A DNA stretch of 32,000 nt from Candidatus Saccharimonadota bacterium (GTDB lineage Archaea > Micrarchaeota > Micrarchaeia > Micrarchaeales > Micrarchaeaceae), in contig OY970071.1 of assembly GCA_963705375.1 (NCBI GenBank), positions 540,001 to 572,000 on the forward strand, read 5' to 3'. Shown here piece by piece: positions 3,005 through 23,975 of the stretch. The notes under the pieces were generated by a model. That model was not told the DNA's origin, did no database searches, and saw only the letters and a program-made list of their open reading frames with translations. The translations under genes and the position numbers were made by a program. The stretch's first letter is position 1, and each line of letters begins with the position of its first letter.

Positions 3005-3007
3005 TGA

Positions 3008-8153: not shown

Positions 8154-8249
8154 TTTAACAACCCAAAGATACTGAGCCCACAAAGGTATAAATACATTGG
8201 ATATATTAACGATATATCAATTCTCAACCATCTGTACGTTTGTGATATC

Positions 8250-8642: not shown

Positions 8643-9119
8643 TTGGGTGTTGGATTGCCTGTCCGTGTCTACGAATGCGATAGATCCGAAGCAGATGCGC
8701 TGAAGAAAGTCCTGGAGTACGACCCTTACACTGATGCTAGCCTCATACCTTCCGCACCAAGAAGCGCAGACAAACCTGCGGACAAGCTCACAGAGAGCGA
8801 AAAGAAAGAGGTCGAAGAGTATGAGAAGAAGGCGCAAGAGGTGCGCGAGAAGCTGAGCAAAGATCCCAGGGCACAGACCATATTTGTGAGGCAGGGATGC
8901 AACCTGAAAGACGGCGCAATAGTGGGCCTGAATGCGAACAAGCTTTACCTTTACGTCAATGCTGCTGAGGATTTCTTCCCAAAGGCAGAGCAGCGCTTCA
9001 AGAATGAGTTCAAGACCATCAAGAGAGCCGAGAAGAAGGATGAAGACGCGGTAATCGCAGCGATAAAGAAAGATGAAGACAATGCAGGGTCAGGCTTCGG
9101 TTCGATATTCGGTGGTTAG
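8643..9119 (+). CDS. Hypothetical acidic protein with a ribosomal-stalk-like C-terminal tail
   Basis: The ORF has no internal ATG. TTG codons occur at 8643, abutting the S8e stop, and at 8655. The 8655 TTG is preceded by GGGTG with a 5-nt spacer. The C-terminus is DEDNAGSGFGSIFGG. Confidence 0.6.
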   Translation: MGVGLPVRVYECDRSEADALKKVLEYDPYTDASLIPSAPRSADKPADKLTESEKKEVEEYEKKAQEVREKLSKDPRAQTIFVRQGCNLKDGAIVGLNANKLYLYVNAAEDFFPKAEQRFKNEFKTIKRAEKKDEDAVIAAIKKDEDNAGSGFGSIFGG

Positions 9120-9164
9120 CTGCACATACTTGAAATCGATTCGCTATCCAAAGACCACATAAAC

Positions 9165-10013
9165 ATGATATTCGAAATGGCAGATTCCGCTGCGCAGAAA
9201 AAGAATATTGATGTGCTTAAAGGCAGGACCTTAGCTTTGCTCTTTACTTTGCCATCTACGCGCACAAGGCTCTCTTTCTCTGTAGCGATGACACATCTTG
9301 GCGGATCCGCAATCTACATAGACGAACACAGCTCACAGATGAAGCGCGGAGAGACGATAGCAGACACTACAAGAATGATCAACTCCTACTGCGACTTCAT
9401 AGCGGTGAGGACAAAAGAGCACAAAATGCTGCTCGAGATAGCGTCAAACGCCACGGTGCCAGTCATCAATGCACTGACAATGCAGGAGCACCCTACGCAG
9501 GCGCTGACCGACATGTACACGATACTGAAGCACAAAAATAAAGAAAAGTTGTGCATAGCGATGCTTGGGGACATCGCCCAGAACACGTTCAACTCTTTGA
9601 TGATAGTTGCAACTAAACTGGGAGCAGAAGTGCATTTGATAGGGCCTAAGGGCTTCAATCCTGACCAGAAGTATGTCTCAATGGCATCACGCTACGGCAC
9701 GGTGAAAGTCTACGACTCGATAAAGGAAGGCGTTGCAGGTGCGGACATCGTTTACACAGACACGTTCACCAGCATGGGCACGGAGAGCGAGGCAGAAACA
9801 AGGAGGAAGCTCTTCGCGCCGTACCAGGTTAACGACAAACTGCTCTCTTACGCCAAGCCTGACGCGCTCGTGATGCATCCGCTGCCTGCGCACCGCGGTG
9901 AGGAGATAACCTCTGAAGTGCTCGATGGCAGCAAAAGCATAGCATGGGAACAGGCAAGAAACAAGCTGGCCATTGCCCAAGCGGTACTTCTATTCCTTTC
10001 AGAAAAACGTTAG
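9165..10013 (+). CDS. argF: Ornithine carbamoyltransferase-like protein. The real start is probably upstream, near 9120.
   Basis: It has STRTR, HPTQ, the OTCase-type DTFTSMG and YQVN, and HPLPAHRGEEIT. The in-frame upstream peptide LHILEIDSLSKDHIN resembles the conserved OTCase N-terminus. Confidence 0.8.
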   Translation: MIFEMADSAAQKKNIDVLKGRTLALLFTLPSTRTRLSFSVAMTHLGGSAIYIDEHSSQMKRGETIADTTRMINSYCDFIAVRTKEHKMLLEIASNATVPVINALTMQEHPTQALTDMYTILKHKNKEKLCIAMLGDIAQNTFNSLMIVATKLGAEVHLIGPKGFNPDQKYVSMASRYGTVKVYDSIKEGVAGADIVYTDTFTSMGTESEAETRRKLFAPYQVNDKLLSYAKPDALVMHPLPAHRGEEITSEVLDGSKSIAWEQARNKLAIAQAVLLFLSEKR

Positions 10014-10090
10014 TGCAACCTCAAAACGCGCGCGTTCAAGGCACATGAAAATGCTTAAGTATCTAGATCAGAGCCATACTTGTGATCAGG

Positions 10091-11083
10091 ATGAACAAGG
10101 CAATTCGGTACAGTTCAACGCAGTCGGGGTCAGAGATTTCTGGCCGTTGGAGGCCAGAAGAACTACTCGACTCTCAGTTTTTAGCAAACCTGATGAAATG
10201 CGGAGAAGTCCAGAAAGGAGGGTGGTCTGCATATCTCAATAAGGCACAGCTAATGCGAGGTGAAGATGCTCAGAACGGAGAATGGTCTGCGTATTTCAAT
10301 AAGAACCCGTGCCATATACGTCTGGGCAGAAATATGCATGACCGTCCGTTAATAGACATAGAACTTGCACCAAAAAGCAACATGGTGACTTCGATAGCGT
10401 CATATATCGTTTCAAGCAAGCCAGAATTTGCAGGTCTTGTTCTTGAACTTGAGAATTTGGAGATTTTCAGGTCTGAAAGTGCAGAGAAACTTGGTTTCAA
10501 GCCTTCAGAATTGAGTGCGGGCAGGCAAACAGCAGAAGGACTTTTAAAGATTCTTCATCTCAACGCTTACGATATCTCTTTGTTGCGACCAAGCTCAGAA
10601 TATGCCGGAAATAAGGACAATACGGTTTTAGTGCTTCAAGATGAGTCCGTAATAATTGAGTCCGGACATGGAGTTTATGGACTTCATACTTTCGGAGCGA
10701 GCTCATGTTCTATACTGATAGTTGTATCAAGAGATTCAAAAGGCACGGTCAAGAGGGCAGGATTGGCGCACATTGATTTTGGGGTGCAGAAAGAACAAAT
10801 TATACGATTTTTAAATATGGCAAAACTAGGGGATATTGATCCTGAAATCTATGTCATAGGCGGAGACAAAGAAACAGCTTTGCATGTCTTGGAAAGCTGC
10901 GAAGCAATAAGGGCGCAAATAAAATTTTTCTGTGCCAATTTGGACTTGTCAAGGTCGGATGCTGCGATAGTCGATTTCAACGGGACAGTCTATTATGGCA
11001 AATTTAAAGATTTGCTTGCATTGTTAAATGAAGAAGGAGCAAGACAACGCCTTGAGATGTTCAAGTCGCAAATGCTGCGCTGA
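10091..11083 (+). CDS. Hypothetical protein with a C-terminal CheD-like (Cys/His deamidase-like) domain
   Basis: FGASSCSILIVVSRDSKGTVKRAGLAHIDF and YVIGGDKE resemble the CheD core pattern GSC..(hydrophobic)..D...G.aH and I.GGA. ATG at 10091 (GTG at 10082 is an alternative). The function call is tentative. Confidence 0.5.
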   Translation: MNKAIRYSSTQSGSEISGRWRPEELLDSQFLANLMKCGEVQKGGWSAYLNKAQLMRGEDAQNGEWSAYFNKNPCHIRLGRNMHDRPLIDIELAPKSNMVTSIASYIVSSKPEFAGLVLELENLEIFRSESAEKLGFKPSELSAGRQTAEGLLKILHLNAYDISLLRPSSEYAGNKDNTVLVLQDESVIIESGHGVYGLHTFGASSCSILIVVSRDSKGTVKRAGLAHIDFGVQKEQIIRFLNMAKLGDIDPEIYVIGGDKETALHVLESCEAIRAQIKFFCANLDLSRSDAAIVDFNGTVYYGKFKDLLALLNEEGARQRLEMFKSQMLR

Positions 11084-11125
11084 CACGTAAACCTTCCAAT
11101 CAGCAGTTTAACTGCCTGAGCTCAA

Positions 11126-11632
11126 TCATGTTGGAATCGGTGGAGGCGTTGCAGAAGAGTTCGTGTTATTGAATATGCTGTTTGGGGAAGGCTGGCCTGA
11201 CGATGCATTGCCTGTTGGCGTTGTTGTAGTGCTGTTCACGGATGTTGAAGACGTATTGGCAGTAGTTGTATTGTGGTGCGCTGCCATGACCATGGATGTC
11301 GAAGTGTTTACAGCAGGGCTGCTCGCAAATATGTAGAGATATGCCAGAATCAGAATTCCGATAGCCAGAATAACAAGAAGTGCAGGCAAAAGAGGACCAT
11401 GTCCGCTGCTCGGAAGCGGCACAGTATTAGAAGCAGCAGTTTCTGGAGCCTTGCCTTGAGGCATTTGAGGCATATTAGGTGCAGAGCTTTGGACAACATT
11501 CATAGAAGTATTTGCAGCAGCACCAAGAGCAGTGCTTGAGATGTTATTCGAAGATGGATTCACAGGATTGTTTTGAATATCACTCGAAGTCGCACCCGAG
11601 GCAGCATTCGTGTCTTTCATATCGGCGTCCAT
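11126..11632 (-). CDS. Low-complexity Ser/Thr/Asn/Pro-rich protein with a single TM helix
   Basis: 168 aa with one central hydrophobic helix (LLPALLVILAIGILILAYLYIFA) and low-complexity flanks. It lies 15 nt downstream of the surface protein gene on the same strand. Confidence 0.5.
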   Translation of the reverse strand: MDADMKDTNAASGATSSDIQNNPVNPSSNNISSTALGAAANTSMNVVQSSAPNMPQMPQGKAPETAASNTVPLPSSGHGPLLPALLVILAIGILILAYLYIFASSPAVNTSTSMVMAAHHNTTTANTSSTSVNSTTTTPTGNASSGQPSPNSIFNNTNSSATPPPIPT

Positions 11633-11647
11633 TTTCTCACTCGTTTT

Positions 11648-12967
11648 TCATGGTGGCGAAGGAGGCATATTGTTGTTGCCAAGGCTGCACGCACTGGACA
11701 CCTTGATCAGATACCCAGCTCCGGAATGCATACCAGTTTGGTTGTTTGTTGATGAAGTAGAAACATCGTAGTAGCTGTTCGATGACGTATTGAAGCCTAC
11801 AAGGCGTATGGCGTTGCATGAACCTGCGATATAACTGAAAGCCGTAGGTGCTGCTGGTGCGCCTATACTGCTCCAGCCCGATGATAACGACGGCATAATC
11901 GAATATGTCATATTAGAGCCGAAGAATGTCACAGAACACGCGCTAGTACTCCTCACCCAATAGCCAAATCCGCCGCTAACGCTGCTAACCTTCCTGTAAC
12001 TGCCATTTGCCAGCTGCCATATCGGGCTGGAAATCATTCCGGACTCGCAAGTCGTGTTGTGCATCACTGCGTACGCCATGGGCACGGAGAAAAGGTTCCA
12101 GCCCCTGTTAAGGGAGAGGGTGTATGTAATATACCGCGGTATGGTCACAGTGGTTGTAGTGATTGGAGGGGTTGGAGTAATCGTAGAAGAGAGATTCTTT
12201 ACACCAATACTAGCCCATCTAGAGACGTTTCCTGCGTATGTCGAGTTCAGGAACAGGATGAAGCTGTGCTCATCAGTCGTAAACTTCGTTGTTGAATGAG
12301 GCAGCAGAGTGAAAACATTTGTCTGCACAGTGTTGTAATACATCACAAGTGTTGCAGGACTAATCCCGTTTGCATTTGCAGCGCCAAGGTTCTGCAGCTG
12401 AATTCTCAACTTACCGTCGATCAGGCTGTTGCCCACGTAAACAGTTGTCAAAGGTATTGTGAGATTTGAAAGAGTGTTAGTTGGAATTGTGGTTGTTGAA
12501 GTGTTGCTAGGCGCGGTAGTTTGTGATCTTGTTGTTGCTGACAGGTTCCTTATACCTATCTGCGCCCACTGTTGATATGATGAAGATGAAGAATTTGCAC
12601 GCGAAGAGTTTGCGGTTGCATAAGAGTTCGGATAATAGGTCTCGTTAACGAACACTAGGAAGCTGTGGTTGGAAAAGTTGAAGATCATAGTTGAAAAGGG
12701 CCTGATTGTTGCAATCTGTCTCTGTGCCCCATAGTATGTGGCAGATATTTGCACGGGAACATTGTATGTGATATAATTTCCTGACTGGTTGCCGAGAAGG
12801 CTTGTGAGCTGCACCCTGAACAGACCGTCTGTCAGGTTCTGTTTCAGGTAGAGCTTTGTTAGCGGTATTGTGAGATTTGACTGGGATTCAGAGAAAGCGA
12901 CGTTGCTCATCATCGTTGCAGCCACCAGCACTAAACCAAGCACAAGAGGAATATGTTTGAAGTTCAT
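11648..12967 (-). CDS. Secreted cell-surface (S-layer-like) glycoprotein candidate with an internal tandem domain duplication
   Basis: It has a signal peptide (MNFKHIPLVLGLVLVAATMMSNVAFS). Two modules of about 130 aa are homologous (SNLTIPLTKLYLKQNLTDGLFRVQL versus SNLTIPLTTVYVGNSLIDGKLRIQL). There are many N-x-S/T sequons, and the C-terminal region has GWNLFSVP / GFGYWV motifs. Confidence 0.7.
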   Translation of the reverse strand: MNFKHIPLVLGLVLVAATMMSNVAFSESQSNLTIPLTKLYLKQNLTDGLFRVQLTSLLGNQSGNYITYNVPVQISATYYGAQRQIATIRPFSTMIFNFSNHSFLVFVNETYYPNSYATANSSRANSSSSSYQQWAQIGIRNLSATTRSQTTAPSNTSTTTIPTNTLSNLTIPLTTVYVGNSLIDGKLRIQLQNLGAANANGISPATLVMYYNTVQTNVFTLLPHSTTKFTTDEHSFILFLNSTYAGNVSRWASIGVKNLSSTITPTPPITTTTVTIPRYITYTLSLNRGWNLFSVPMAYAVMHNTTCESGMISSPIWQLANGSYRKVSSVSGGFGYWVRSTSACSVTFFGSNMTYSIMPSLSSGWSSIGAPAAPTAFSYIAGSCNAIRLVGFNTSSNSYYDVSTSSTNNQTGMHSGAGYLIKVSSACSLGNNNMPPSPP

Positions 12968-12996
12968 TGTATCGGAAGTATTGAAAAGCGATATTA

Positions 12997-13008
12997 GATA
13001 TAATTTTT
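12997..13008 (-). promoter_or_regulatory. Candidate TATA box for the surface-protein operon
   Basis: The minus strand reads AAAAATTATATC about 30-40 nt upstream of the ATG at 12967, consistent with a short or absent leader. Confidence 0.3.
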
Positions 13009-13183
13009 GGTTAGTTGACTAGGCACGAAAAACAGAAAGAAATTGTTAGTTCTTACTTTTTAGCTGCTTCTTTTGCCTCAGAGCATATCTCATTAACGCA
13101 CCACCGCCTGTTTGTTTTGTATGTAAAGCGATAAAACCGTTGATAGGGATCGGGTATTCAACAGCCGCAAAGAATGGGCAAGG

Positions 13184-13191
13184 TATATATA
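13184..13191 (+). promoter_or_regulatory. Candidate TATA box of the 16S rRNA promoter
   Basis: TATATATA lies about 80 nt upstream of the processing stem and about 145 nt upstream of the mature 16S 5' end. Confidence 0.3.
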
Positions 13192-13267
13192 TGTTTCAGG
13201 CGTATCTTATTACGCTTTTTTCTGTTGTTTTCATTGGTTTATTCTATGAAAATTCCTGCTTGGAATT

Positions 13268-13301
13268 GGATGTAGTCTTGAGTTGTGCAAAGAGGACCGC
13301 A
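13268..13301 (+). other. 5' strand of the pre-16S processing stem with a BHB motif
   Basis: GGATGTAGTCTTGAGT pairs with 15385-15400 (16 bp). The central GTGC pairs with GCAT at 15378-15381. This is followed by a 3-nt AAA bulge and then the inner helix GAGGA-CCGCA, which pairs with 15367-15377. Confidence 0.6.
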
Positions 13302-14385
13302 CAACGCCAATAAATAAGTAAAAGGCTAAATAGACTCCAGTCGATGCTGCTGGAGAACACCGCTATCAGATTTCGACAGCCATGCAAGTCAGCCCTGCGA
13401 CTTCGCAGGACGGCGAACGGCTCAGTAACACGTAGTCAATCTAACGCAAAGAGGTGGATATCCTCGCGAAAGTGAGGTTAATACACCATACGCTATTGCA
13501 CCTGGAAAGAGCGATAGTATAAAGGCGCACGAAATGTAGTGTTGCCACTTTGCGATGAGACTGCGGCGGATCAGGCAGATGGTGGGGTAACTGCCCACCA
13601 TACCAATAACCCGTAGGGGATGTGAGAGCAAGCGCCCCGAGAAGGGCACTGAGATAAGGGCCCTAGCGCTACGGCGTGCAGCAGGCGCGCAAACTTCACA
13701 ATGCGCGAAAGCGTGATGAGGGGAATCTGAGTGGATAACTTTTAGTTATCCTTTTGCCAAGTATATCAAGCTTGGCGAATAAGTGCTGGGCAAGACAGGT
13801 GGCAGCCGCCACGGTAATACCTGCAGCACAAGTGGTGTTCACGATTATTGGGCTTAAAGCGCTCGTAGCTTGCATGTTCCGTCTTGTGTGAAATATTGGT
13901 GCTCAACATCAATGCGAGCACGAGATACCGACATGCTGGGGAGCGGGTGAGGTCAGGGGTACTTATAGGGGAGGGGTTAAATCCTGTAATCCTATAAGGA
14001 CCAACGGTGGCGAAGGCGCCTGACCAGAACGCATTCGACAGTGAGGAGCGAAGGCTAGGAGAACGAATCGGATTAGATACCCGAATAGCCCTAGCAGTAA
14101 ATTATGCAGACTCTAGTGTTGCACGTGACACGATCACGTGCAGTACCGTAGCGTAAGCGTTAAGTCTGCCGCCTGGGGAGTACGGCCGCAAGGTTGAAAC
14201 TTAAAACAATTGGCGGGGGAGCACCACAAGGGGTGGATGCTGCGGTTCAATTGAACTCAACGTCGGAAATATTACCAGGAGCGACGGCAGTATGAAGGTC
14301 AAGCTAAAGACTTTACCTGACAAGCCGAGAGGTAGTGCATGGCGATCGTCAGCTCGTGGTGTGAACTGTCCGGTTAAGTCCGGTA

Positions 14386-14897
14386 AGCTGGTGAGTAATT
14401 GGCTAGAAGGCTCGCATTGAATCCAGATATATGCTACATGCTTGGTCTGTACGCAAGCAATTTGCGTGCAGAGTCGGCAGTAGTGACAACAGTGGGCAGC
14501 GATGCCCTTGTCGAGCGCTTCGTCAAGATAGCAGTTCAGCAGTTGGGCATAGAACCAGGAAAGATCCTGATAAGGGACCTTGGTACGCGCAAGAGCGCGT
14601 TTTTCTATAACTCTAAGCTGAGAAAGCATCTTGATAACGCATTGGAGCGCAAGGAACATATCTTCAAGTACAGGAACGAGTATTCGGCCAGTTATTTTGC
14701 GGCTCTCTTCGACTGCAATGGAGTGACAGGCGCTAGCGGCACATACATAATCCGCCTTAGTGCTTTCGATTCCCTTCTTCTTGAGAAGCTGGGATTCCAC
14801 ACATTGACAAAGAGAGGCAGATGTTACATCGCGAACTCGTTAGACTTTATGATTTTCATAAAGCCTTTTAGCATATCAATTGCTCATCAGCCCGGTT
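14386..14897 (+). mobile_element. Archaeal BHB-type intron within the 16S rRNA gene, near the E. coli position 1100 region
   Basis: The conserved GTTAAGTCCGGTA / ACGAGCAAGACCC is interrupted. The central helix is CCGG (14380-83) paired with CCGG (14892-95). There are 3-nt bulges TAA (14384-86) and TTA (14896-98), and a 16-bp inner helix (14387-14402 with 14876-14891). The exact junction could shift by 1-2 nt. Confidence 0.75.
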
Positions 14898-14917
14898 ACG
14901 AGCAAGACCCTTGCTGA
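14399..14917 (+). CDS. Intron-encoded double-motif LAGLIDADG homing-endonuclease-like protein
   Basis: 172 aa, with motif 1 YMLGLYASN and motif 2 YFAALFDCNG about 86 aa apart. The TTG start directly follows an in-frame TAA. The ORF runs 20 nt into the 3' exon. Confidence 0.75.
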   Translation: MARRLALNPDICYMLGLYASNLRAESAVVTTVGSDALVERFVKIAVQQLGIEPGKILIRDLGTRKSAFFYNSKLRKHLDNALERKEHIFKYRNEYSASYFAALFDCNGVTGASGTYIIRLSAFDSLLLEKLGFHTLTKRGRCYIANSLDFMIFIKPFSISIAHQPGYEQDPC

Positions 14918-15366
14918 CAGTTGCAACCTATCCAGCGATGGGTAGGGCACTCTGTCGGGACCGCCTCTGTTTAAAGAGGAGGAAGGAGAGGGCAACGGTA
15001 CGTCAGTATGCTCTGAATCTCCTGGGCCACACGTGGCATACAAAGGTTGGCACAATGGGATGCAATACCGAAAGGTAAAGCAAACCCCCTAAAACCAACC
15101 CTGGTTCGGATTGAGGGCTGAAACCCGCCCTCATGAAGCTGAAATCCCTAGTAATCGCTTGTCAACATCGAGCGGTGAATCTGTCCCTGCTCCTTGCACA
15201 CACCGCCTGCCAAGTCACCCAAGTGGGGTCCTAGCGAGGTTGTGCCTTTGGCATAATCGAGTTAGGATTCTGTAAGGAGGGCTAAGGCATAACAAGGTAT
15301 CCGTAGGGGAACCTGCGGATAGATCACCTCAAATATCATTTAGTGTGCATAATAACAGCAATCGAA

Positions 15367-15400
15367 TGCGGATCCTCGCATAAAACTCAAGACTACATTC
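15367..15400 (+). other. 3' strand of the pre-16S processing stem with a BHB motif
   Basis: It is complementary to 13268-13301: TGCGG-A-TCCTC (inner), GCAT (central), AAA bulge, then ACTCAAGACTACATTC (outer). Confidence 0.6.
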
Positions 15401-15418
15401 TTTTTCTATTTTTGTTTT
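15401..15418 (+). terminator. Oligo-T tract, candidate archaeal terminator for the 16S transcript
   Basis: TTTTTCTATTTTTGTTTT lies immediately 3' of the processing stem. Confidence 0.3.
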
Positions 15419-15449
15419 GAATAGAAGAGACAACAAGCCAGTTGACACG

Positions 15450-16643
15450 ATGGACATCACAAAAGCAGCAAGATGTTTTGTCGTTGTACTATTTGTAATG
15501 CTGATGCTGCCGGTAGCATTCGCAGGCACGTGCAACATCACCAGCAACACATGCAAGCTGAATTCATCGATAACAATCAATGGCATAGCAGTCAACGCTA
15601 CAGGCAAGACGGGAAAGCCGGTGTACATGACAATGGCTTATGCGAACGGCTGCACCCACTGCGAAGCGCTCAATAACTACATAAGGAACCTGAGCAGCAC
15701 ATACGACATACGCGTGACATACGTGAATGCGGTCACCAATCAGACAGCATTGACGCAATATCTCAGCACATACAAAGTGCCGGCAGGCGGCTGGGACACG
15801 GTACCGATCCTTTTTGTCAACGGCATGCACTGTGTCGGCGATACCGAATGCGAAACGTTCTTGTCATCGAACATAGAGGCATTCGCCAAGAATGGCACAA
15901 GCCCACAAACGGCGTCCGGTGCAGGACTGAGGGGCATAACAATAGCAGAGCTTACAGGCCTTGCGCTTGTTGATTCGGTAAACCCGTGCGCCTTCGCCGT
16001 GCTCATATTCTTGCTGTCGACGCTGTTCATGAGAAACCCGGACAAGAGATACAGGATACTGCTTGGGGGGATCGCTTTCGCACTGGGAATATTCACGTTC
16101 TACATAACAGTGGGCATACTCCTCGTTCTCGGGATAAGGTCGGTGCTCGCCATATCAAATCTGAAAAGCATCTACGTCTACGGCGCGTTCGGAGTGTTCT
16201 CCCTCATACTTGGCGTGTTGAACCTCAAGGATTACTTTGCATACGGTAAATTTGGATTCATCATGGAGGTCCCGAGAAGCTGGAGGCCGAAGATGCTTGG
16301 GACCATGGACAAGATACTCTTCGAGTTCGCTTCTATACCCGCATCATTCATCGCAGGAATAGTCGTCACCGCTTTTCTTCTGCCGTGCATAACCGGACCA
16401 TATTTCGTCGCAGGTAGCCTGTTGAAGAACCTGCCGACAGGCACCGCGATACTTTGGCTTGTATACTACAACTTCCTGTTCGTGCTTCCCATGCTGATAA
16501 TAACCGCATTGGTATACTTGAGTTTCACGACTGTAGAGAAGGCTCAGGAGTTCAGGGAAAAGAACCTGAAGAGGCTGCATCTGCTTGCAGGTGTGCTGCT
16601 CATCATTGTAGGTATAGTCATACTGCTGCAAGTAATAAGGTAG
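15450..16643 (+). CDS. Thioredoxin/glutaredoxin-like domain fused to a CcdA/DsbD-type transmembrane thiol-disulfide transporter
   Basis: It has an N-terminal signal anchor and a CxxC motif (CTHC) in a Trx-like region. The polytopic domain carries DSVNPCAF and LLPCITGPY, the two conserved Cys motifs of CcdA/DsbD. ATG at 15450; an upstream TTG is at 15417. Confidence 0.8.
   Translation: MDITKAARCFVVVLFVMLMLPVAFAGTCNITSNTCKLNSSITINGIAVNATGKTGKPVYMTMAYANGCTHCEALNNYIRNLSSTYDIRVTYVNAVTNQTALTQYLSTYKVPAGGWDTVPILFVNGMHCVGDTECETFLSSNIEAFAKNGTSPQTASGAGLRGITIAELTGLALVDSVNPCAFAVLIFLLSTLFMRNPDKRYRILLGGIAFALGIFTFYITVGILLVLGIRSVLAISNLKSIYVYGAFGVFSLILGVLNLKDYFAYGKFGFIMEVPRSWRPKMLGTMDKILFEFASIPASFIAGIVVTAFLLPCITGPYFVAGSLLKNLPTGTAILWLVYYNFLFVLPMLIITALVYLSFTTVEKAQEFREKNLKRLHLLAGVLLIIVGIVILLQVIR
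16566..16643 (+). repeat. Direct repeat copy A, the functional 3' end of the Trx-CcdA gene
   Basis: This 78-nt segment matches 18251-18328 at 69 of 78 positions (hand alignment without gaps). It encodes LKRLHLLAGVLLIIVGIVILLQVIR followed by a stop. Confidence 0.85.
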
Positions 16644-16660
16644 TGGCTGTGTGGCACGGG

Positions 16661-17605
16661 CTAGTGAATGTGCCCCTGAGCATCAAAAATGTCATTTCTT
16701 ATAAATGTTTTTCCATTGAAAGTAATCGGAATACTTTCTCCTTGCACGTTGTTTGCCTGAATGTGCAGATGTGGTCCAGTCGTTCTTCCCGAGTTGCCTA
16801 CTTTTCCCAGAGGCTGTCCAGTTATAACCGATTCCCCTTCAGAAACAAGTATACTGCCTTTTTTAAAATGAAGCATGCTGACTCGCGCCCCCGAACACTC
16901 CAAAATAACATAATTCCCATGAGATTCGTTTTCATCTCTTTGCATAATGGGCATATCCTCTGAAGAATCATTTGCCTTAAAAACAGTCCCACTGCACGGC
17001 GCATAAACTGTTTCATTGAAAATATAATAATCAGACAAATTGCTTGAAAAAAATCCCCGTCCACTAAATCCAAGAGAATCTATTTTAATTATGTCATACG
17101 CATATTTCTGTGCTACGACTTCATTATGACTATTTAATGCGGCATTACTCCCTCCTTCCGCAAAAAAATATTGCCCATTCTTCAAAGGAAACTCGAGTTG
17201 TACTGCATTCACAGGGTAGAACGGTGCCATAAAGCAAGTAATAACGGTAAGCAGGAACAAAACTGACATTATTAGTAAACAAGTATAATAAAAATAATCT
17301 TTGATTTCAAGTTTCTTAAATAAAGGAAGTTTTTTCTTTAATTGGATCATCCATACTTTTTGAAAAGAATAAATACTAGCAATCAGAAACATTATCGGAA
17401 AAATATATCTTAGATAATAATTGATTCCAGCCCAAGAAATTAAAAAATAAATCCAGATAATGAATGATGCACTAAAAATAAAACGTGAAATCCAATCAAA
17501 TTTTGATTTATTTTTGCCGACAATTTGCCACAAAATAATCAAAAGTGGAAAAACCAGCGAAAACAAATAAAATGGAACTAGCTCAACTATTGCCGATGGA
17601 TCCAT
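16661..17605 (-). CDS. Membrane-anchored M23 (LytM/lysostaphin-type) metallopeptidase
   Basis: The N-terminal region has several TM helices. The C-terminal domain carries GNSGRTTGPHLHIQ (the HxH zinc motif), preceded by HGNYVILE and an SH...YAYD region. The coding sequence is strongly AT-rich. Confidence 0.75.
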   Translation of the reverse strand: MDPSAIVELVPFYLFSLVFPLLIILWQIVGKNKSKFDWISRFIFSASFIIWIYFLISWAGINYYLRYIFPIMFLIASIYSFQKVWMIQLKKKLPLFKKLEIKDYFYYTCLLIMSVLFLLTVITCFMAPFYPVNAVQLEFPLKNGQYFFAEGGSNAALNSHNEVVAQKYAYDIIKIDSLGFSGRGFFSSNLSDYYIFNETVYAPCSGTVFKANDSSEDMPIMQRDENESHGNYVILECSGARVSMLHFKKGSILVSEGESVITGQPLGKVGNSGRTTGPHLHIQANNVQGESIPITFNGKTFIRNDIFDAQGHIH

Positions 17606-17738
17606 ATTGACTAATAACGCTAAAAAACATAAAAGAGTATGTCTTGGGTGAGCTTGCCGAAATCAATGGATTGGACTTACGCAATCATCTGATTGCAAAA
17701 ATGGAAGAGATATAAAGTAGTATCAATAAGATTACTGT

Positions 17739-18167
17739 ATGATTAAGAAGAAGAGTGCCCCAACTAGCTTGTTGAAACTTGCTGCGCTAGTCGCATTCCT
17801 TTATCTTATCGAGATCGGGCTTATTCTGTTGGGCATTATTCCCCCATTTCTCACATATTCCCCTGGCAACCTCCTCTTTTCTTTAGCCACGATTGCAATC
17901 GTGATTTATGCAGGCACCAAATCCTCGAAGTTGGGATTGAATAGGGCGGCATTTAGCGGAGCGATCCTCTCGTTTATAGGGGCTTTTCTTATCTCCGTGG
18001 CTTCAGTAATCAACGTACTCTATATACGCGTAGCCCTACTGGGAGTATCAGTCGAGAATGACGCCCAGCTTCTTGTGTTTCTTTTCTCTCTGGTTTTTCT
18101 GTATACACTGACCGGTGTCATCATCGCCGTACTTGCCGCAGTTATCAAAGACAAGATTAGTCGGTAG
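17739..18167 (+). CDS. Small polytopic membrane protein (about 4 TM helices), unknown function
   Basis: 142-aa hydrophobic ORF inside the repeat-bracketed cassette. Confidence 0.5.
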   Translation: MIKKKSAPTSLLKLAALVAFLYLIEIGLILLGIIPPFLTYSPGNLLFSLATIAIVIYAGTKSSKLGLNRAAFSGAILSFIGAFLISVASVINVLYIRVALLGVSVENDAQLLVFLFSLVFLYTLTGVIIAVLAAVIKDKISR

Positions 18168-18250
18168 TTTGCCCCCATAGCTTCTGCTTTCCTTCCAAGT
18201 CCACAAATCTCCCCCTTCTTCCATACATCGTTACTTTAGGGGCAGAAGAA

Positions 18251-18328
18251 CTGAAGAGGCTGCATCTGCTCGCAGGCATACTGCTAATCATTGTAGGCAT
18301 AGTCATACTGCTGCAAGTGATCAAGTAG
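18251..18328 (+). repeat. Direct repeat copy B, an orphan fragment of a CcdA-like gene 3' end
   Basis: It encodes LKRLHLLAGILLIIVGIVILLQVIK plus a stop in the same register as copy A. No similarity to the Trx-CcdA gene is seen upstream of 18251. Confidence 0.85.
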
Positions 18329-18374
18329 AAGCTGACCTACTTGGTAAGTGTTAGAAAATTGATTTGTGCTGGCT

Positions 18375-19517
18375 TTATTTAGAATATTCGACAGTTTCAG
18401 AGGCATACTGCGACGCTATCAGCACTTTGCCTGTGCCGGCTTTCACCTGTCCTATTATGTCTGCAGCAAAATAGTTCCTTAGCGTTTCTAGCGCTTCTGG
18501 TGCGAAAGATTCTTCTACTGCAATGACGTAGCCTACGCCGTTGTTGAATTTCACATACATTTGGTCTGAGGGCATGCCCAATTCGTCATGTGCGTACTGG
18601 AAGATCTCTTGCGGTCTCAGATCGTGGTCGTTTCTTACATCTATGTCAAGATCTTTTTTCTCCGGTATTAATTCTTTGAGTTTCGACATACCTCCGCCCG
18701 TTATGTGCACCATACCGTGGATGAGTTCGCCTGCGATGGCTTCGCCCTGCTCTGCAGACTCTATTAATGCCTTTACAGCTGGCAGATAGACATACGTTGG
18801 TCTTGTCAGCTCTTCGCCGATTGCCACGCCCCAAGGAAGATTCGTTTCCATCAACAGATGTCGCCTGTCGAACAGCTCCTGCCGATAGAAGCTCAAACCA
18901 TTGGAGTGTATGCCGTTGCTTCCCAAGCCGATTATCAAATCGCCGTCTTTTATATTGGCATGTATTTCGTGACCCTTCCTGACATAACCTGTTGCGGTCA
19001 TGCTTATGTTGAAGCCTCGTAGAGTATTGATGATTGCAGTCTCTCCGCCACTGATTATTATAGGATAAGAACTGCCGTCTGCTTTCCAGCTGTTCTCGAT
19101 CGCAAGTTTGGTGAATTCGCTGACGATGTTGAATATCATATCTTGGCGCTCTTCCTGCATCTCTATCTCGTCCTGGAACACTACAGGAACAAAGCCACCT
19201 TCGATCAGGTCATCAACGACCATCGCGAAAACATCATGAACGCCGTATGCTTCTGAGCCCATTGACCAGTGCAGCAGACCCTTGGTTCCTATGCTGTCAG
19301 TGCAATTCATTTCGTAAAAATTATTCCAATACGCATAGTTCCTCTCTATCATGAAGCGCTTGCCATAAGGCACAGTAATCATTGGCCCTTCTTCGGGATG
19401 TGCTGATCTTATGAGCTCGCGTATCTGATCGTTGAAAGGCTTCGTAGGATCGTAAATCTCTTTGCCTTCACGCAACGCAATATCTGTCGGCTTTTCCGTT
19501 GTTTTAGTTTTATCCAC
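18375..19517 (-). CDS. purM: PurM-like protein (AIR synthase family)
   Basis: TDSIGTKGLL, ISGGETA, GSNGIHSNGLSF, TRPTYVY and HGMVHITGGG match the PurM signature blocks. The GTG start follows GGTGG with a 4-nt spacer. Confidence 0.7.
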   Translation of the reverse strand: MDKTKTTEKPTDIALREGKEIYDPTKPFNDQIRELIRSAHPEEGPMITVPYGKRFMIERNYAYWNNFYEMNCTDSIGTKGLLHWSMGSEAYGVHDVFAMVVDDLIEGGFVPVVFQDEIEMQEERQDMIFNIVSEFTKLAIENSWKADGSSYPIIISGGETAIINTLRGFNISMTATGYVRKGHEIHANIKDGDLIIGLGSNGIHSNGLSFYRQELFDRRHLLMETNLPWGVAIGEELTRPTYVYLPAVKALIESAEQGEAIAGELIHGMVHITGGGMSKLKELIPEKKDLDIDVRNDHDLRPQEIFQYAHDELGMPSDQMYVKFNNGVGYVIAVEESFAPEALETLRNYFAADIIGQVKAGTGKVLIASQYASETVEYSK

Positions 19518-19532
19518 CTGGCCACCAGTATA

Positions 19533-19739
19533 CTAAATACTGAAGAATAGATCGAGTAGCAGGTCACTGTCGCGAGTGCGCACTATGGATTCTTTATCTT
19601 CTGGTTTTTCGTCCTTGCGCAGTTCTATTCCTGTCGGAGTTTGCTGCTTGTCGATATCGAGTTCATAAAGGCCGTCATGGAGACGTATCAATTCGCCCTC
19701 TTCTTGTTTTCCTTTTGATTTTTCCATAGCCTCATCCAC
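19533..19739 (-). CDS. Small acidic hypothetical protein (68 aa)
   Basis: The ORF lies between S11 and the PurM-like gene on the same strand. Its stop is 15 nt upstream of the PurM-like start. The C-terminus is DSDLLLDLFFSI. No recognised family. Confidence 0.35.
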   Translation of the reverse strand: MDEAMEKSKGKQEEGELIRLHDGLYELDIDKQQTPTGIELRKDEKPEDKESIVRTRDSDLLLDLFFSI

Positions 19740-19794
19740 TTTAGAAACATTTGTTTTACGGTTGACGCTGCAGGTAGAGAGTGTGCTGTGCGCG

Positions 19795-20307
19795 CTATAC
19801 TCTTCTTCCCCTTCTGCCTCCAGGTCTTCTTGTTGTATCTGTAGGCATCGGAGTGATATCCTCTATCCTGTTCACACGTAGGCCGCTTCTTGCAAGAACT
19901 CGAACAACTGCTTGAGCACCCAGTCCAGGAGTCTTTGAACCATGGCCGCCAGGAGCCCTTATCTCTATGTTTATGTTGGTGACCCCCTTCTCCTTTGCAG
20001 TAGCTGCAACCTTGTACGCTGCTTGCATTGCAGCATAGGGCATGCCTTCTTGAGAGTCGACATCGACCATCATGCCGCCGCTTCCGACAGCGATGGTCTC
20101 TGCACCGCTAAGGTCTGTAAGCGTTATTATAGTATCGTTCTTCGAGGAATAAACGTGAGCGACAGCAAGCCTTTCGGCTTTAGGCTTTATTGCAGAAATC
20201 TCCAACGCCTTCGCTTCATAATTTACTGTGTTCTTGACCACTTTCTGCTGGGTCTTCGCAGTCTCCTCTTTTTCTTTTTTTGACGCAATCTTCTTCTTTC
20301 CTGGCAT
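19795..20307 (-). CDS. rps11: 30S ribosomal protein S11 (uS11) with a Lys-rich N-terminal extension
   Basis: [26 protein letters not shown] and the C-terminal [12 protein letters not shown] are present. GAGGAG lies 7 nt upstream of the ATG. Confidence 0.93.
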
Positions 20308-20335
20308 GCAATTACTCCTCGTTTTATATTTCAGT

Positions 20336-20905
20336 TCATTCAGCCTTTACATCCTTGGATTCCGTAGCTGCTTTCTCTGCAGACTTCTCTTCGGCCGGCG
20401 CAGCTGGCTTTTCTTTCTTTGCTATGTCTATCGGTTTGTAATAACCGATGCTGCCCTCTTCCGAAGATTCAACAATATAACTCGGCTTCGTGGTCCTCTT
20501 GCCTTCTATAGATATAAAGCCGTGCGTGATCAGCTGTCTTGCCTGCTTGATCGTAGTGGCCAGACCCCTCTTGAACACCAGAGTCTGAAGCCTCCTTTCA
20601 AGCAGCACTTTAGGATTGAGGTCAAGTAAAGAATCGAGAGTTGCATCCCTGTTTGCCACTATGCCAATCTTGGATAGCCTTTCTGTCATGAGCTTGCGCG
20701 TTTCCTCAAGGTGTGACGAAGACCCTGAAAGCAATATCCTTGCGTTTCTCCTCACCTTGCCTATCTCAGACGAAGCTTTCCAGAGTTCCTTCAGATTCTT
20801 GAGCCCGTACTCGGTCATCAATGCCCGATCGTTGCTTATTCTCTCGACGTTCCAAAGCTCTTTCGGCCTTTCGTACTTTCGCCTGTTTTTGTTTGGTGCT
20901 CCGAT
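20336..20905 (-). CDS. rps4: 30S ribosomal protein S4 (uS4). The start is extended beyond the first canonical start codon.
   Basis: The track ORF (20336-20821) begins at [14 protein letters not shown]. The same frame upstream encodes [29 protein letters not shown], which matches the conserved archaeal S4 N-terminus (GDPRK.RKKYETP.HPW). There is no ATG/GTG/TTG in that stretch, so the candidate start is ATC at 20903-20905. Confidence 0.85.
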
Positions 20906-20909
20906 AAAC

Positions 20910-21530
20910 TCACTTCTTTGCTGTTGGTGCAGCGCCCTTGCCCTTCGCCGCTCCGGCTGCCGGCGCCGCTCCGCCCTTCGCGTTGTCTTTCTGCAATGCC
21001 GCAGCCTGGGCTTCCTTCACTGCCTTCTTTGTCACGCCGACAGTCACGCCAGTCCTACCCGTTGAACGGGTGTGCTGGCCCCTGACGCGTTGGCCATACT
21101 GGTGCCTGAATCCGCGCCATGTCCTTGCATTGACGTCTCGGTTTACGTCCTGCCTTATTGCAAATATAAGATCGTTGCCTGAAAGATACAGACCCTTGCC
21201 AGAATCCATGTCCTTGTTCCTATTCAGCATATAGCTAGGGATCCCTGTACTCGAAGGATCTTTTACTATGCGCTCTATGCTCTGTATCTGTTCCTCACTA
21301 AGCGAACCTATAGAAGTTTTCCTGATTATTCCGAGTTTTGCTTCTACCTCGTATGAAAGAGCATGTGCCATGCTAGAGCCTATGCCTTTTACTTGGTCTA
21401 GAGCACGTTCTATGTTAAGTGCACCGTTGACATCCTTGCCGACTATGCGCACTATCGAGAGAGCGCTGCCCGCGACCTCGTTCCTCGACTTGGATTGCCT
21501 TTCCTCTTTTTTCTGTTTTTCGTCTGCCAT
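20910..21530 (-). CDS. rps13: 30S ribosomal protein S13 (uS13) with an Ala/Gly/Lys-rich C-terminal extension
   Basis: VRIVGKDVNG, KGIG, WRGFRHQYGQRVRGQHTRSTGR are present, followed by a low-complexity tail of about 40 aa. Confidence 0.93.
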   Translation of the reverse strand: MADEKQKKEERQSKSRNEVAGSALSIVRIVGKDVNGALNIERALDQVKGIGSSMAHALSYEVEAKLGIIRKTSIGSLSEEQIQSIERIVKDPSSTGIPSYMLNRNKDMDSGKGLYLSGNDLIFAIRQDVNRDVNARTWRGFRHQYGQRVRGQHTRSTGRTGVTVGVTKKAVKEAQAAALQKDNAKGGAAPAAGAAKGKGAAPTAKK

Positions 21531-21540
21531 TCAAACACTA

Positions 21541-21653
21541 CGCCAGGGCTGGGATATTCAGGTTTATCTTTTGAACCCAGAAGGCCCCGAAGAGCCATAC
21601 GCTGGCTAGAATCTTTTCCAGGCGTACGCGTTGCCGGATTCTGCCACCCTGGC
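21541..21653 (-). tRNA. tRNA-Ser(GGA), class II, with two introns (12 nt at 37/38 and 15 nt in the T-loop at 59/60)
   Basis: - Acceptor stem: GCCAGGG/CCCTGGC, discriminator G.
- Anticodon arm: stem TACGC/GCGTA; the spliced loop is CTGGAAA.
- Variable arm: long arm GGCTC-TTCG-GGGCC.
- T arm: stem CTGGG/CCCAG; the spliced loop is the canonical TTCAAAT.
- Each intron sits in a 4-bp helix flanked by two 3-nt bulges (details in findings).
- The D stem is weak (2 bp plus an A-C pair). Confidence 0.8.
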
Positions 21654-21678
21654 AGCGTAAATGTTATACTGCTAGGTG

Positions 21679-21685
21679 TATTTAG
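21679..21685 (-). promoter_or_regulatory. Candidate TATA box for tRNA-Ser and the S13 operon
   Basis: The minus strand reads AAAGTGCTAAATAC, and the CTAAATA element ends 25 nt upstream of tRNA position 1. Confidence 0.35.
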
Positions 21686-21743
21686 CACTTTCTTAAGAGC
21701 CAATAACTATTGTTATTGTGGATTTTTAACTATATATGGTGGG

Positions 21744-22136
21744 TCACTTAGAGGGATTGATGATGGTGCAGTTGACCGCAAACACGCATTTGCACTTTTT
21801 AAGGGCGTTGAAGAGCCTTCTTGTGCCTTCAGCGCTCGTATTTACGTCGAGAACGTCTATGCATGTGCCGGCGCTGTGGCGGTGCAGTTCCGCCTGTATC
21901 GAATCCTCAAAGCTGTGCAGCAAATCAAACACACGAGCCTTCTCGTGCTTCTTGTAAGTGAGCACGAACACGCTCTGAACATTCCCGGTCAGAGATTCCA
22001 GAGTCTCATATTCCTTCAATGCGCCCAGTACTGCGTTCCTGAGCAGTTTCGACCTGCTCTTGAATCCGAGAGTGCGCTGTATCGTGTTCAGCCGTTTGAG
22101 AGTTGCGTCGTCTATGGATATGCTAAGTATCGTCAT
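21744..22136 (-). CDS. nikR: NikR-like metal-responsive regulator (ribbon-helix-helix plus a C-terminal metal-binding domain)
   Basis: The N-terminus LSISIDDATLKRLNTIQRTLGFKSRSKLLRNAV has the RHH pattern. The C-terminal HRHSAGTC resembles the NikR HxH...C high-affinity site. It is divergent from the metal ABC importer. Confidence 0.7.
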   Translation of the reverse strand: MTILSISIDDATLKRLNTIQRTLGFKSRSKLLRNAVLGALKEYETLESLTGNVQSVFVLTYKKHEKARVFDLLHSFEDSIQAELHRHSAGTCIDVLDVNTSAEGTRRLFNALKKCKCVFAVNCTIINPSK

Positions 22137-22166
22137 TTAATCAACAATATGCTTTTATCGGAAAGA

Positions 22167-22195
22167 TTAATAAGTTTTCATGATTTAGTTATTAA
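22167..22195. promoter_or_regulatory. Candidate operator: inverted repeat TTAATAA-N15-TTATTAA
   Basis: This is a perfect 7-bp inverted repeat with 15-nt spacing in the nikR-like/importer intergenic region, 8 nt upstream of the importer ATG. It is AT-only, so chance occurrence is possible. Confidence 0.3.
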
Positions 22196-22202
22196 CGATT
22201 TA

Positions 22203-23147
22203 ATGGTTGCAGCAGACAGATATGCGGCGATAGGGATCGTGGCCGTCGTGGTTGCAATTGTGGCAATCGCAGGCCTTGCTGTGCAAGGCACGCATGCAAG
22301 CAGACCAATTTCAAACCAGAGCGCAGGCAGAGCAGTACAAATCGTCGCGGCAGAGAATTTCTGGGGAAGCCTTATGCAGCAGATCGGAGGAAGCCACGTC
22401 AATGTGACGAGCATCGTTACTGATCCGAATGCTGATCCACACGAATACCAGAGCAGCATCGCCAATGCAAGAGAGATAGCAAAGGCCCAGATCATCGTAG
22501 TCAACGGAGCAGGATATGACGACTGGGCACTCAAGCTCGTATCAGCAGAAAACAGCACAAGCCAAACTGTACTGGATGTCGCCAGCCTGCTGGGAATGGC
22601 CAACGGCACCAATCCTCATTTCTGGTACAACCCGTCTTACGTGAATGCGACAGTTAAGCAGATGTACACAGACCTAGTCAAAACAGACCCGGCAGACGCT
22701 AGCTATTATCTGCAGAGATATGAAGCGCTTAATGCATCGCTTGCGCAGGTAGACAGCAGGATCTCAGATATCAGGCGGCAGTTCGCAGGCACCAGGGTGG
22801 CAGCAACTGAGAGCATCTTTGTATATCTGGCGAACGCTACAGGCCTTGATCTGGTGTCACCCCCGGAATTCATGAACGCAGTATCAGAAGGCGTAGACCC
22901 GCCGGCGCAGAGCGTTGTGCAATTTGAGAACCAGATTGAGAGTGGAAACGTTAGCGTACTTGTATACAATGAACAAACAGTAAATCCGCTCACGCAGCAG
23001 ATGAAACAAATAGCTTCGCTGCATAACGTCACTGTAGTCGGCGTGACCGAAAACATCCAGCCTCCGGACAGCACATTCCAAGCCTGGATGACTGCTGAAC
23101 TGCTAAACCTGCAGAGCGGCCTCAGCGCAAATGTGCTTGAGAGGTGA
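22203..23147 (+). CDS. Metal ABC transporter substrate-binding protein (ZnuA/TroA-like)
   Basis: It has a signal anchor (MVAADRYAAIGIVAVVVAIVAIAGLAV), followed by VAAENFWGSL, TDPNADPHEYQ and VVNGAGYDDW. The track ORF 21495-23147 is an artefactual upstream extension. Confidence 0.8.
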   Translation: MVAADRYAAIGIVAVVVAIVAIAGLAVQGTHASRPISNQSAGRAVQIVAAENFWGSLMQQIGGSHVNVTSIVTDPNADPHEYQSSIANAREIAKAQIIVVNGAGYDDWALKLVSAENSTSQTVLDVASLLGMANGTNPHFWYNPSYVNATVKQMYTDLVKTDPADASYYLQRYEALNASLAQVDSRISDIRRQFAGTRVAATESIFVYLANATGLDLVSPPEFMNAVSEGVDPPAQSVVQFENQIESGNVSVLVYNEQTVNPLTQQMKQIASLHNVTVVGVTENIQPPDSTFQAWMTAELLNLQSGLSANVLER

Positions 23148-23153
23148 GTAAGG

Positions 23154-23975
23154 ATGAAAACCCCGAACACCAAAAGAATGCAACCATCGATGCCAAAAAT
23201 GGTGGTCGAGGCCAAGAACCTTGCAGCAGGCTATAGGGGAAGACCTGTCTGGCGCGATGCTAGCTTCAGAGTTAATCGAGGGGAATTTGTTGCAGTCATA
23301 GGCCCAAACGGAGCAGGCAAGACAACACTGTTCCGCCTACTTCTTGGCCTGCAACAGCCAGTAAGTGGAACGATAAAAGTGTTAGATACACCACCCAGGC
23401 GAGGCAATCCTAAAATAGGGTATGTGCCCCAGCGACACACCATAGATAACGAGAACAACATCGAATGCCTTGAACTGCTCCGCCTTGCATTCTCTGGAAA
23501 TAGGTTGGGGTTTAGTTTATCGTATGGAGAGGAGAAGAAAGCTGCAAATGATGCATTGGACAGAGTCGGAGCTACAGAGCTCGGAAACAAACCTCTTGGT
23601 TCGATGTCAGGAGGAGAATTGCAGAGAGTCTTTCTTGCAGAGGCACTGGTCAGCAACCCAGAGATGCTGCTTCTTGATGAGCCTTTGGCTAGCCTAGACA
23701 TAAGGAGAACCAAGGAATTGGTGGGTGTGATAAATAGAGTTGTCAAATCGCAGAATGTTACCGCATTCCTTGTGGCACACGATATCAACCCATTAATACA
23801 GTTTCTTGACAAGGTTATTTACATAGCGAACGGCAAGGTGGCGGCAGGAACACCCAAAGATATATTGACTTCCAAGAGTCTGACAGCATTGTATGAAACG
23901 CAGGTCGAGGTCCTGAAGGATTCTAGAGGAAACATTGTGGTTTTAGGCGGCGGAGACCATCATGGGGATGAATGA
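23154..23975 (+). CDS. Metal ABC transporter ATP-binding protein (ZnuC-like)
   Basis: Walker A GPNGAGKTT, signature MSGGELQRV, Walker B LLLDEP. Confidence 0.9.
   Translation: MKTPNTKRMQPSMPKMVVEAKNLAAGYRGRPVWRDASFRVNRGEFVAVIGPNGAGKTTLFRLLLGLQQPVSGTIKVLDTPPRRGNPKIGYVPQRHTIDNENNIECLELLRLAFSGNRLGFSLSYGEEKKAANDALDRVGATELGNKPLGSMSGGELQRVFLAEALVSNPEMLLLDEPLASLDIRRTKELVGVINRVVKSQNVTAFLVAHDINPLIQFLDKVIYIANGKVAAGTPKDILTSKSLTALYETQVEVLKDSRGNIVVLGGGDHHGDE

Follow-up and report, generated by a model that had tools for sequence, protein, structure and literature searches.

A two-gene insertion bounded by a duplicated gene end in a Micrarchaeota genome

How did two genes come to lie between two versions of the end of a third? 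The question is raised by a stretch of 32,000 nucleotides (nt), hereafter the window, taken from contig OY970071.1 of the metagenome-derived assembly GCA_963705375.1 (positions 540,001 to 572,000), which carries a gene for a thioredoxin-CcdA fusion protein (the Trx-CcdA gene). The 3′ end of this gene is present twice as a direct repeat, and the two copies, here called A and B, enclose a cassette of about 1.6 kb. An earlier note, written from the sequence alone, read this as insertion at the 3′ end of a gene with duplication resembling that of phage attachment (att) sites, and that reading is supported by empty sites in two related genomes, L013 and L003. Several lines of evidence described below establish the insertion and its limits, and the target gene has remained intact through it, including its last membrane helix. 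The route by which the cassette arrived is a matter of graded likelihood, and on balance the probable account is a Campbell-type single-crossover insertion of a horizontally acquired cassette at the end of the Trx-CcdA gene. The features on which the argument turns are as follows.

15450 to 16643, plus strand: the target gene, intact, 397 amino acids (aa), encoding a protein in which a thioredoxin/glutaredoxin-fold domain is joined to a CcdA/DsbD-like membrane domain (from Pfam).
16555 to 16649, core 16566 to 16643, plus strand: repeat copy A, the last 25-30 codons and stop codon of the Trx-CcdA gene, encoding the C-terminal membrane helix.
18234 to 18334, core 18251 to 18328, plus strand: repeat copy B, an orphaned 3′ fragment of the Trx-CcdA gene, with a frameshifted 5′ edge (18234-18250).
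18335 to 19517, minus strand: the native right flank, a spacer and a convergent PurM-like (AIRS_C) gene at 18375-19517 (from synteny and Pfam).

A repeat search of the window recovered the two gene ends as a direct repeat of 95 nt (16555-16649 and 18240-18334) with 83% identity in an ungapped alignment and 1685 nt from start to start. This pair is the sole long dispersed repeat in the 32 kb, the only other long family being confined to one open reading frame (ORF). The 78-nt cores (16566-16643 and 18251-18328) are identical at 69 positions, the count that the earlier note had reached by hand, and they encode LKRLHLLAGVLLIIVGIVILLQVIR in copy A and LKRLHLLAGILLIIVGIVILLQVIK in copy B, each followed by a stop codon. 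At the right edge the similarity continues for 6 nt beyond the stop codon (TAGnnGCTG), and at the left edge it probably extends about 16 nt more, to 16549 and 18234, at the price of a 2-nt insertion and a 1-nt deletion in copy B. Alignments of the two copies beyond the repeat on either side, this left edge included, are not significant when taken alone. Two perfect blocks of 20 nt lie inside the repeats (CTGAAGAGGCTGCATCTGCT and ATAGTCATACTGCTGCAAGT), and neither is marked as a crossover core.

Copy A proves to be the true end of the intact 397-aa Trx-CcdA ORF, and its C-terminus agrees with those of functional homologs (...LHLLAGVMLLIVGIVILLQVIR in P0004). Residues 372-397 of the protein form its last hydrophobic stretch, which is encoded within the repeat. 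The protein matches the Pfam families SfLAP (PF11139, 46.8 bits against a cut-off of 35) and Glutaredoxin (PF00462, 23.6 bits against a cut-off of 22.9). It has 212 homologs, mostly from Micrarchaeia and other archaea, which their sources name thiol-disulfide isomerase or CcdA/glutaredoxin (the latter being the JGI name) and which carry the DsbD family PF02683. By these family matches the target encodes a CcdA/DsbD-like thiol-disulfide membrane protein with a predicted redox role. The convergent neighbour beyond copy B matches AIRS_C in Pfam and scores 141 bits with the purM model TIGR00878, under its curated cut-off of 236.

If the cassette is an insertion, relatives should show the site without it, a comparison that the earlier note had proposed. 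The closest relatives of the target protein share 78-82% aa identity with it, at about 77-80% DNA identity, and the cassette is missing from three relatives whose gene order matches. In L013 (CAISDH010000033, Ca. Micrarchaeota A14_bin-2569; 82% aa identity for the target protein) and in L003 the gene order is 16S rRNA, Trx-CcdA, PurM-like, S11, S4 and S13, with the PurM-like gene directly after Trx-CcdA and nothing between them. Positions 3757-7197 of L013 correspond to 13180-16643 of the window and positions 7109-13194 to 18241-24223, and one 89-nt gene end in L013 (7109-7197) matches both copies, at 16555-16643 and from 18241 onward. Judged by these alignments, the L013 locus is an exact empty site. 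The 30 nt that follow the stop codon of copy B align with the 30 nt that follow the stop codon in L013 (p = 0.0125, by shuffling), and the sequence after the stop codon of copy A aligns neither with the L013 downstream sequence nor with that of copy B. Because only the former matches the downstream sequence of L013, the flank downstream of copy B is native and that of copy A is not. A scan of a genome collection matched L013 only, the window's own genome lying outside the species representatives in that collection. In a third relative, L001, the S11 gene directly follows Trx-CcdA and there is no PurM-like gene, and in a fourth, L004, another gene occupies the gap. The gap between Trx-CcdA and the PurM-like gene is a hotspot of gene turnover in the clade, and from the empty or variable site in relatives the cassette is therefore an insertion specific to the lineage of the window.

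Variation of this kind might also be read in the opposite direction, with the arrangement ancestral and lost in the relatives, or with copy B as the stump of a tandem paralogue that the cassette overwrote. Deletion between direct repeats would produce the empty site that is observed, and the spot is variable in the clade, given the absence of the PurM-like gene in L001 and the presence in L004 of an archaemetzincin-like gene. Such a history is nevertheless very unlikely, as a second gene end or a cassette remnant is absent from all four relatives (L013, L003, L001 and L004), the M23 peptidase gene of the cassette is strongly foreign in composition and scattered over unrelated loci, and the repeat would still require some insertion event. 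The L004 gene (8994-9728, minus strand, 244 aa) overlaps the Trx-CcdA stop codon by 15 nt, has a host-like GC content of 0.46 and no flanking repeat, and its product carries an archaemetzincin-like motif, HEAGHLLGYGLHHC...C..C.

Copy B lies in the convergent gap between the small membrane protein gene of the cassette and the PurM-like gene. As the earlier note had stated, it has no gene body upstream. Its frame contains no ATG, GTG or TTG start codon, and the 5′ edge is shifted out of frame. The possibility that it is part of a conserved separate small gene, which the note had raised against its own reading, is refuted, as the copy is startless and frameshifted and the relatives have nothing at this place. 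Copy B is thus a non-coding relic. A remaining role for it could be imagined as a small protein, as a tail added by frameshifting to the C-terminus of the small membrane protein, or as a regulatory or terminator element, and the core is indeed free of stops and indels within a frame that is open from 18161 and that overlaps, in a different register, the final two codons of the small membrane gene. This seems to us extremely improbable, since the copy has no start codon, no slippery site was seen by eye in an informal inspection of the region, and the tail is missing in the relatives and in the small-gene homologs of L014 and L016. A frameshift near 18161 would add a tail of 55 aa ending in the borrowed membrane helix (18161-18328).

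An artefact of assembly, in which a chimeric join of strain variants made the duplication, has to be considered for a genome derived from a metagenome, and no contig of a second assembly spans the whole cassette, with a gap at 17376-17430. Two Logan contigs of ERR11594402, built by a different assembler, are however 100% identical to 15303-17375 and 17431-21800 and contain one junction each, and the two copies differ at 9 sites, so that no identical repeat can have been collapsed or expanded. The chance of such an artefact is close to negligible. The Logan contigs stop 56 nt apart in the stretch of the M23 gene where the AT content is highest (GC about 0.25), and the gap there is probably a break in coverage or assembly and not a structural variant.

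What was inserted bears on where it came from. The earlier note recognized only an M23 peptidase gene and a small membrane protein gene between the two copies, and this inventory holds, the second gene encoding 142 aa. The insert and its junctions resolve into the following parts.

16644 to 16684, no strand: left junction segment, made up of a 17-nt spacer and the 8 aberrant codons with which the M23 gene ends; similarity to other M23 loci ends at 16685.
16661 to 17605, minus strand: M23 family metallopeptidase, predicted to be membrane-anchored, 314 aa, compositionally foreign (from Pfam and GC content).
16685 to 17645, minus strand: M23 unit common to other Micrarchaeia, the gene body with a 40-nt upstream promoter region (from DNA matches).
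17606 to 17738, no strand: AT-rich divergent intergenic region, GC 0.33, conserved with both genes in L014 and L015.
17739 to 18167, plus strand: second cargo gene, 142 aa, whose hydrophobic stretches would fit about four membrane helices (from hydrophobicity and homologs).
18175 to 18233, no strand: right junction spacer, between the end of the similarity to L014/L015 and copy B.

The product of the gene at 16661-17605 matches Pfam Peptidase_M23 (PF01551) with 52 bits against a cut-off of 28.7, as well as the structure of the ShyA endopeptidase, with its GPHLH aligned to the corresponding ShyA motif (zinc-binding HxH). It belongs by these matches to peptidase family M23, and catalysis is predicted. 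Hydrophobic stretches at the N-terminus, consistent with a multi-helix anchor, precede a C-terminal M23 domain, and there is no binding domain. The whole insert had been described as visibly more AT-rich than its flanks, which is true of the M23 gene (GC 0.35 against a background of about 0.48; GC at third codon positions, GC3, 0.30) and of the intergenic region, but not of the small membrane gene, which resembles the flanks (GC 0.46, GC3 0.52). About eight close homologs of the peptidase (59-80% identity) are all encoded on Micrarchaeia-type contigs, and the next are Lysinibacillus proteins at about 35% identity. At the DNA level the M23 unit is 81-85% identical in L007, L008 and L019, 77% in L006 and 69% in L009-L012. 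The same end points recur in these loci next to unrelated flanking genes, in at least four contexts in Micrarchaeia, and the GC content of the gene is 0.33-0.37 everywhere while that of the hosts ranges from 0.37 to 0.48. Because of this constant low GC content and these unrelated contexts, the M23 gene is foreign and, as judged from its distribution, mobile as a gene.

The two ends of the insert differ from the other occurrences of its genes. The M23 protein of the window ends in DAQGHIH, where those of L019, L007 and L006 end in NAEQK, and because this tail is aberrant the left junction cuts into the end of the M23 gene. The segment 16644-16684 has no match among the fetched loci and no significant similarity to the native downstream sequence. 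On the other side, the pair of genes is seen again in one other metagenome, in L014 and L015, divergently arranged as here (84.5% nt identity over 17349-18174) with another right flank, and the similarity ends at 18174, 7 nt past the stop codon of the small gene. The remaining spacer at 18175-18233 is similar neither to the target gene nor to any fetched locus. The intergenic region at 17606-17738 presumably carries the promoters of both cargo genes. The 142-aa protein itself has no match in Pfam, PHROGs or NCBIfam and just two homologs among 5.8 billion proteins. It could be a partner of the M23 peptidase or an immunity factor, but both genes also occur apart.

Three of the loci that share these genes have features of their own. 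L016 has a small-gene homolog with no M23 gene and keeps the M23 upstream region together with about the first 22 nt of M23 coding sequence (373-435), which suggests that M23 was deleted or replaced there. In L014, the pair is followed (826-3203) by a gene of the immunity-protein family Imm5_like and a gene for a Laminin_G_3 protein, a neighbourhood that hints at conflict or toxin-immunity functions. In L006 (GCA_038871515.1, 8001-9043) the end of M23 lies 22 nt from the 3′ end of a convergent tRNA-Glu(UUC) gene, and no partial copy of the tRNA is present on the other side of M23.

The differences between the two copies give some indication of how they came to coexist. In the core, seven of the nine fall at third codon positions, and the other two exchange valine for isoleucine and arginine for lysine; among functional homologs V and I both occur at the former position, and R is found at the C-terminus. 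Neutral divergence of both copies is rejected by simulation (p = 0.004-0.01), and the differences look like those between two functional alleles. Copies A and B share a derived Leu codon (in N-L-K-R-L) where the relatives have Ile, and because of this shared derived codon they are each other's closest relatives. A sliding-window comparison of the whole Trx-CcdA gene with the four relatives revealed no imported tract.

This pattern has a close counterpart in the prophage e14 of E. coli, which like phage 21 is inserted in the 3′ end of the protein-coding gene icd and leaves the gene intact by means of a second version of its end. As here, the displaced copy (the icdC pseudogene) is an untranslated relic at the other junction, and at the upstream edge of the relic the similarity breaks off sharply in both systems. 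The e14 feature annotated in E. coli MG1655 begins inside icd, 165 nt short of the gene's end, and icdC lies at the far side of the prophage. The two pairs of gene ends compare as follows.

E. coli e14, icd 3′ end against icdC: 153 of 165 positions identical; 11 of 12 differences at third codon positions; 2 conservative aa changes.
This window, copy A against copy B: 69 of 78 positions identical; 7 of 9 differences at third codon positions; 2 conservative aa changes.

On these sequence features the locus is an e14/icd-type insertion scar at a gene 3′ end, and it stands out by its small size, its lack of a recombinase and its DPANN host: e14 spans 15.2 kb, encodes intE and xisE and resides in a bacterium, whereas the present insert has 1.6 kb, two cargo genes and no recombinase and resides in a DPANN archaeon. 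A further difference from e14 and phage 21 is that no extrachromosomal or viral relative of the window's insert was found.

In the account we favour, the incoming DNA would have been a circle on which M23 and the small gene were accompanied by a diverged version of the final ~95 nt of the Trx-CcdA gene. One reciprocal crossover between the gene end of the circle and that of the chromosome would then have placed a direct repeat around the insert. Its upstream product, copy A, would be a working hybrid end that keeps the gene whole with its last membrane helix, and its downstream product, copy B, would be a dead relic beside the original neighbour, the PurM-like gene. Both the circular intermediate and the single crossover are steps that we infer. 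As to the enzymes of strand exchange, we slightly prefer host homologous recombination, which would have worked on homeologous sequence about 95 nt in length, since an integrase is missing and since other loci have the cargo genes but not these ends; a site-specific recombinase, since lost or acting from elsewhere in the genome, could have served instead. Integration of circular DNA by homologous recombination, the Campbell-type 'pop-in', is a tool of archaeal and bacterial genetics. Like the events proposed here it predicts direct duplication of the shared segment with no dedicated integrase and with pop-out possible, but it is a laboratory paradigm, and in the present case the homology is about 95 nt long and 88% identical, the host is a DPANN archaeon and the circle is a proposed intermediate.

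Several observations weigh against this account. Neither an integrase, excisionase or replication gene nor a circular form was observed, and the 1.6 kb leaves no room for a decayed gene of this kind. A mimic of the gene end on a related element was found neither in viral contigs, searched with a repeat-core pattern, nor in phage records or plasmids, and a scan of metagenome contigs gave just one chance match, in a bacterial TPR gene. The M23 gene has no flanking duplication in L006, L007, L008 or L009, and where the cargo genes are found in other loci, neither the repeat nor the junction spacers come with them. The nine sites at which A and B differ polarise contradictorily with the outgroups L013, L001, L003 and L004 and do not indicate which copy is native, or whether the element supplied copy A as the replacement end in the way the note had proposed, because third positions are saturated at 77-80% DNA identity. 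Finally, a model in which A is constrained and B drifts is only weakly disfavoured in simulation (p = 0.05-0.09).

This last model is what would be expected had the target been duplicated in place, an illegitimate insertion having re-copied about 95 nt of the recipient's gene end, for example by replication template switching or by fill-in of a long staggered break. The copies would have been identical at the start, with A thereafter under selection and B drifting. Neither a recombinase nor an att-bearing donor was found, filler segments are present at both junctions (16644-16684 and 18175-18233), and the two indels clustered at the 5′ extreme of copy B look, together with the altered 3′ tail of M23, like junction scars. 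The model is not rejected at the 5% level with transition bias (p = 0.09) and is borderline without it (p = 0.048). The core of copy B, however, has neither indel nor stop and only two conservative aa changes despite 11.5% divergence, and derived changes are divided about evenly between A and B and not about 3:1 toward B, a comparison that is weak with such distant outgroups. The pattern also fits that of e14 and icd, in which the element is known to have supplied the second copy. Taken together, these points make duplication in place a rather unlikely course of events.

The single-crossover account can be carried one step further, to a mobile unit that has no integrase and moves between sister Micrarchaeota genomes by carrying the 3′ end of its target, a form of 'homology hitchhiking'. 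Recombination between A and B would release a circle of 1.7 kb with M23, the small gene and one hybrid repeat, and homologous recombination would take this circle up into Trx-CcdA in a relative that lacks the cassette, leaving the gene undamaged. We think this extension quite unlikely.

Searches for the hallmarks of other element types were uniformly negative, in agreement with the earlier note, which had seen no integrase, transposase or terminal inverted repeat: none was found by a Pfam scan of 26 window ORFs and an inverted-repeat search, and recombinase or transposase domains were equally absent from nine ORFs compared with PHROGs and five compared with NCBIfam. The note's suggestion that the cassette be compared with viral and plasmid databases brought nothing to light, as blastn of 16500-18400 against phage and plasmid records returned no match, and the M23 protein has no match in viral contigs. 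An insertion sequence or transposon was rejected on the grounds that there is no transposase, that no inverted repeat pairs the ends of the insert and that the duplication runs to about 95 nt and is imperfect. An integron cassette was likewise rejected, with no IntI domain in the window and no attC-like inverted-repeat structure at the ends in a general repeat search, made with no dedicated attC model. Of the features of a site-specific integrative element, the locus has the bounding direct repeats, the intact target with its relic and the empty site, and lacks an element-encoded recombinase. Elements integrated at tRNA 3′ ends in archaea and bacteria show the same succession of intact target, element and partial 3′ copy, but they use a short perfect core, whereas here the target is a protein gene, the repeat is imperfect over about 95 nt and there is no integrase.

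Partial tRNA ends are found beside one of the related M23 loci. L007 (1800-1875) and L008 (943-1170) share 99.8% identity on the right-hand side of the final ~15 nt of a tRNA-Glu(CUC) gene and are unrelated on its left. The tRNA is intact in L007; L008 has no intact tRNA-Glu there, and in its place two partial tRNA 3′ ends (..CGGTCGGAGCA) are separated by 168 nt. These are likely att-type scars that integrative elements left beside the M23 locus.

The nature of the cargo adds a biological dimension. Archaea have no peptidoglycan. Some archaea possess horizontally acquired peptidoglycan hydrolases of patchy distribution that kill bacteria (PMC12352652). The M23 protein of the window resembles these in its occurrence in an archaeon that lacks peptidoglycan, in its patchy spread and in having its nearest bacterial relatives among Bacillota. 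It differs in architecture, the described enzymes being secreted and modular with cell-wall-binding domains, whereas this one is predicted to be held in the membrane by several N-terminal helices and lacks a binding domain. By analogy, a role against bacteria or in remodelling the surface of a partner is plausible, and the presence of the gene in a peptidoglycan-free organism fits the patchy archaeal capture of bacterial cell-wall hydrolases, possibly as weapons (PMC12352652). The DPANN archaea have small, streamlined genomes and poorly documented routes of gene acquisition, and here a gain is resolved to the base pair. If it is true that no recombinase is needed, about 95 nt of diverged homology would suffice for the natural capture and spread of cassettes between related archaea. 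At present the locus is a useful annotated example and not a new principle.

The window as a whole is archaeal, and its source contig has a recorded length of 1.21 Mb. It contains a 16S rRNA gene at 13334-15332 (Rfam SSU_rRNA_archaea), and its best protein relatives bear the names Candidatus Micrarchaeales, Micrarchaeia and Micrarchaeota. Genes for the ribosomal proteins S11, S4, S13 and S8e are present, and the other housekeeping genes encode MCM, MetRS, enolase, iPGM, a member of the aspartate/ornithine carbamoyltransferase family, a Znu-type ABC transporter and TspO. The 16S rRNA match covers 1999 nt (13334-15332) against a model of 1478 positions, an excess of about 520 nt, and an ORF of 172 aa lies within the gene at 14399-14917, with counterparts of 172 aa in L013, 116 in L003 and 110 in L004. 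The ORF has no match in Pfam, PHROGs or NCBIfam. The extra sequence looks like an rRNA intron with a homing-endonuclease-like ORF.

A second clade-variable segment, at 10015-13170, is flanked by the carbamoyltransferase-family gene (9165-10013) on one side and the 16S rRNA gene on the other. It has no DNA match in L013, L003 or L004, and L013 has an ORF of 697 aa at that place. The segment holds three ORFs of 333, 168 and 439 aa with no family match, the last of which encodes a Ser/Thr/Asn-rich product and contains an internal 74-nt repeat with a spacing of 411 nt.

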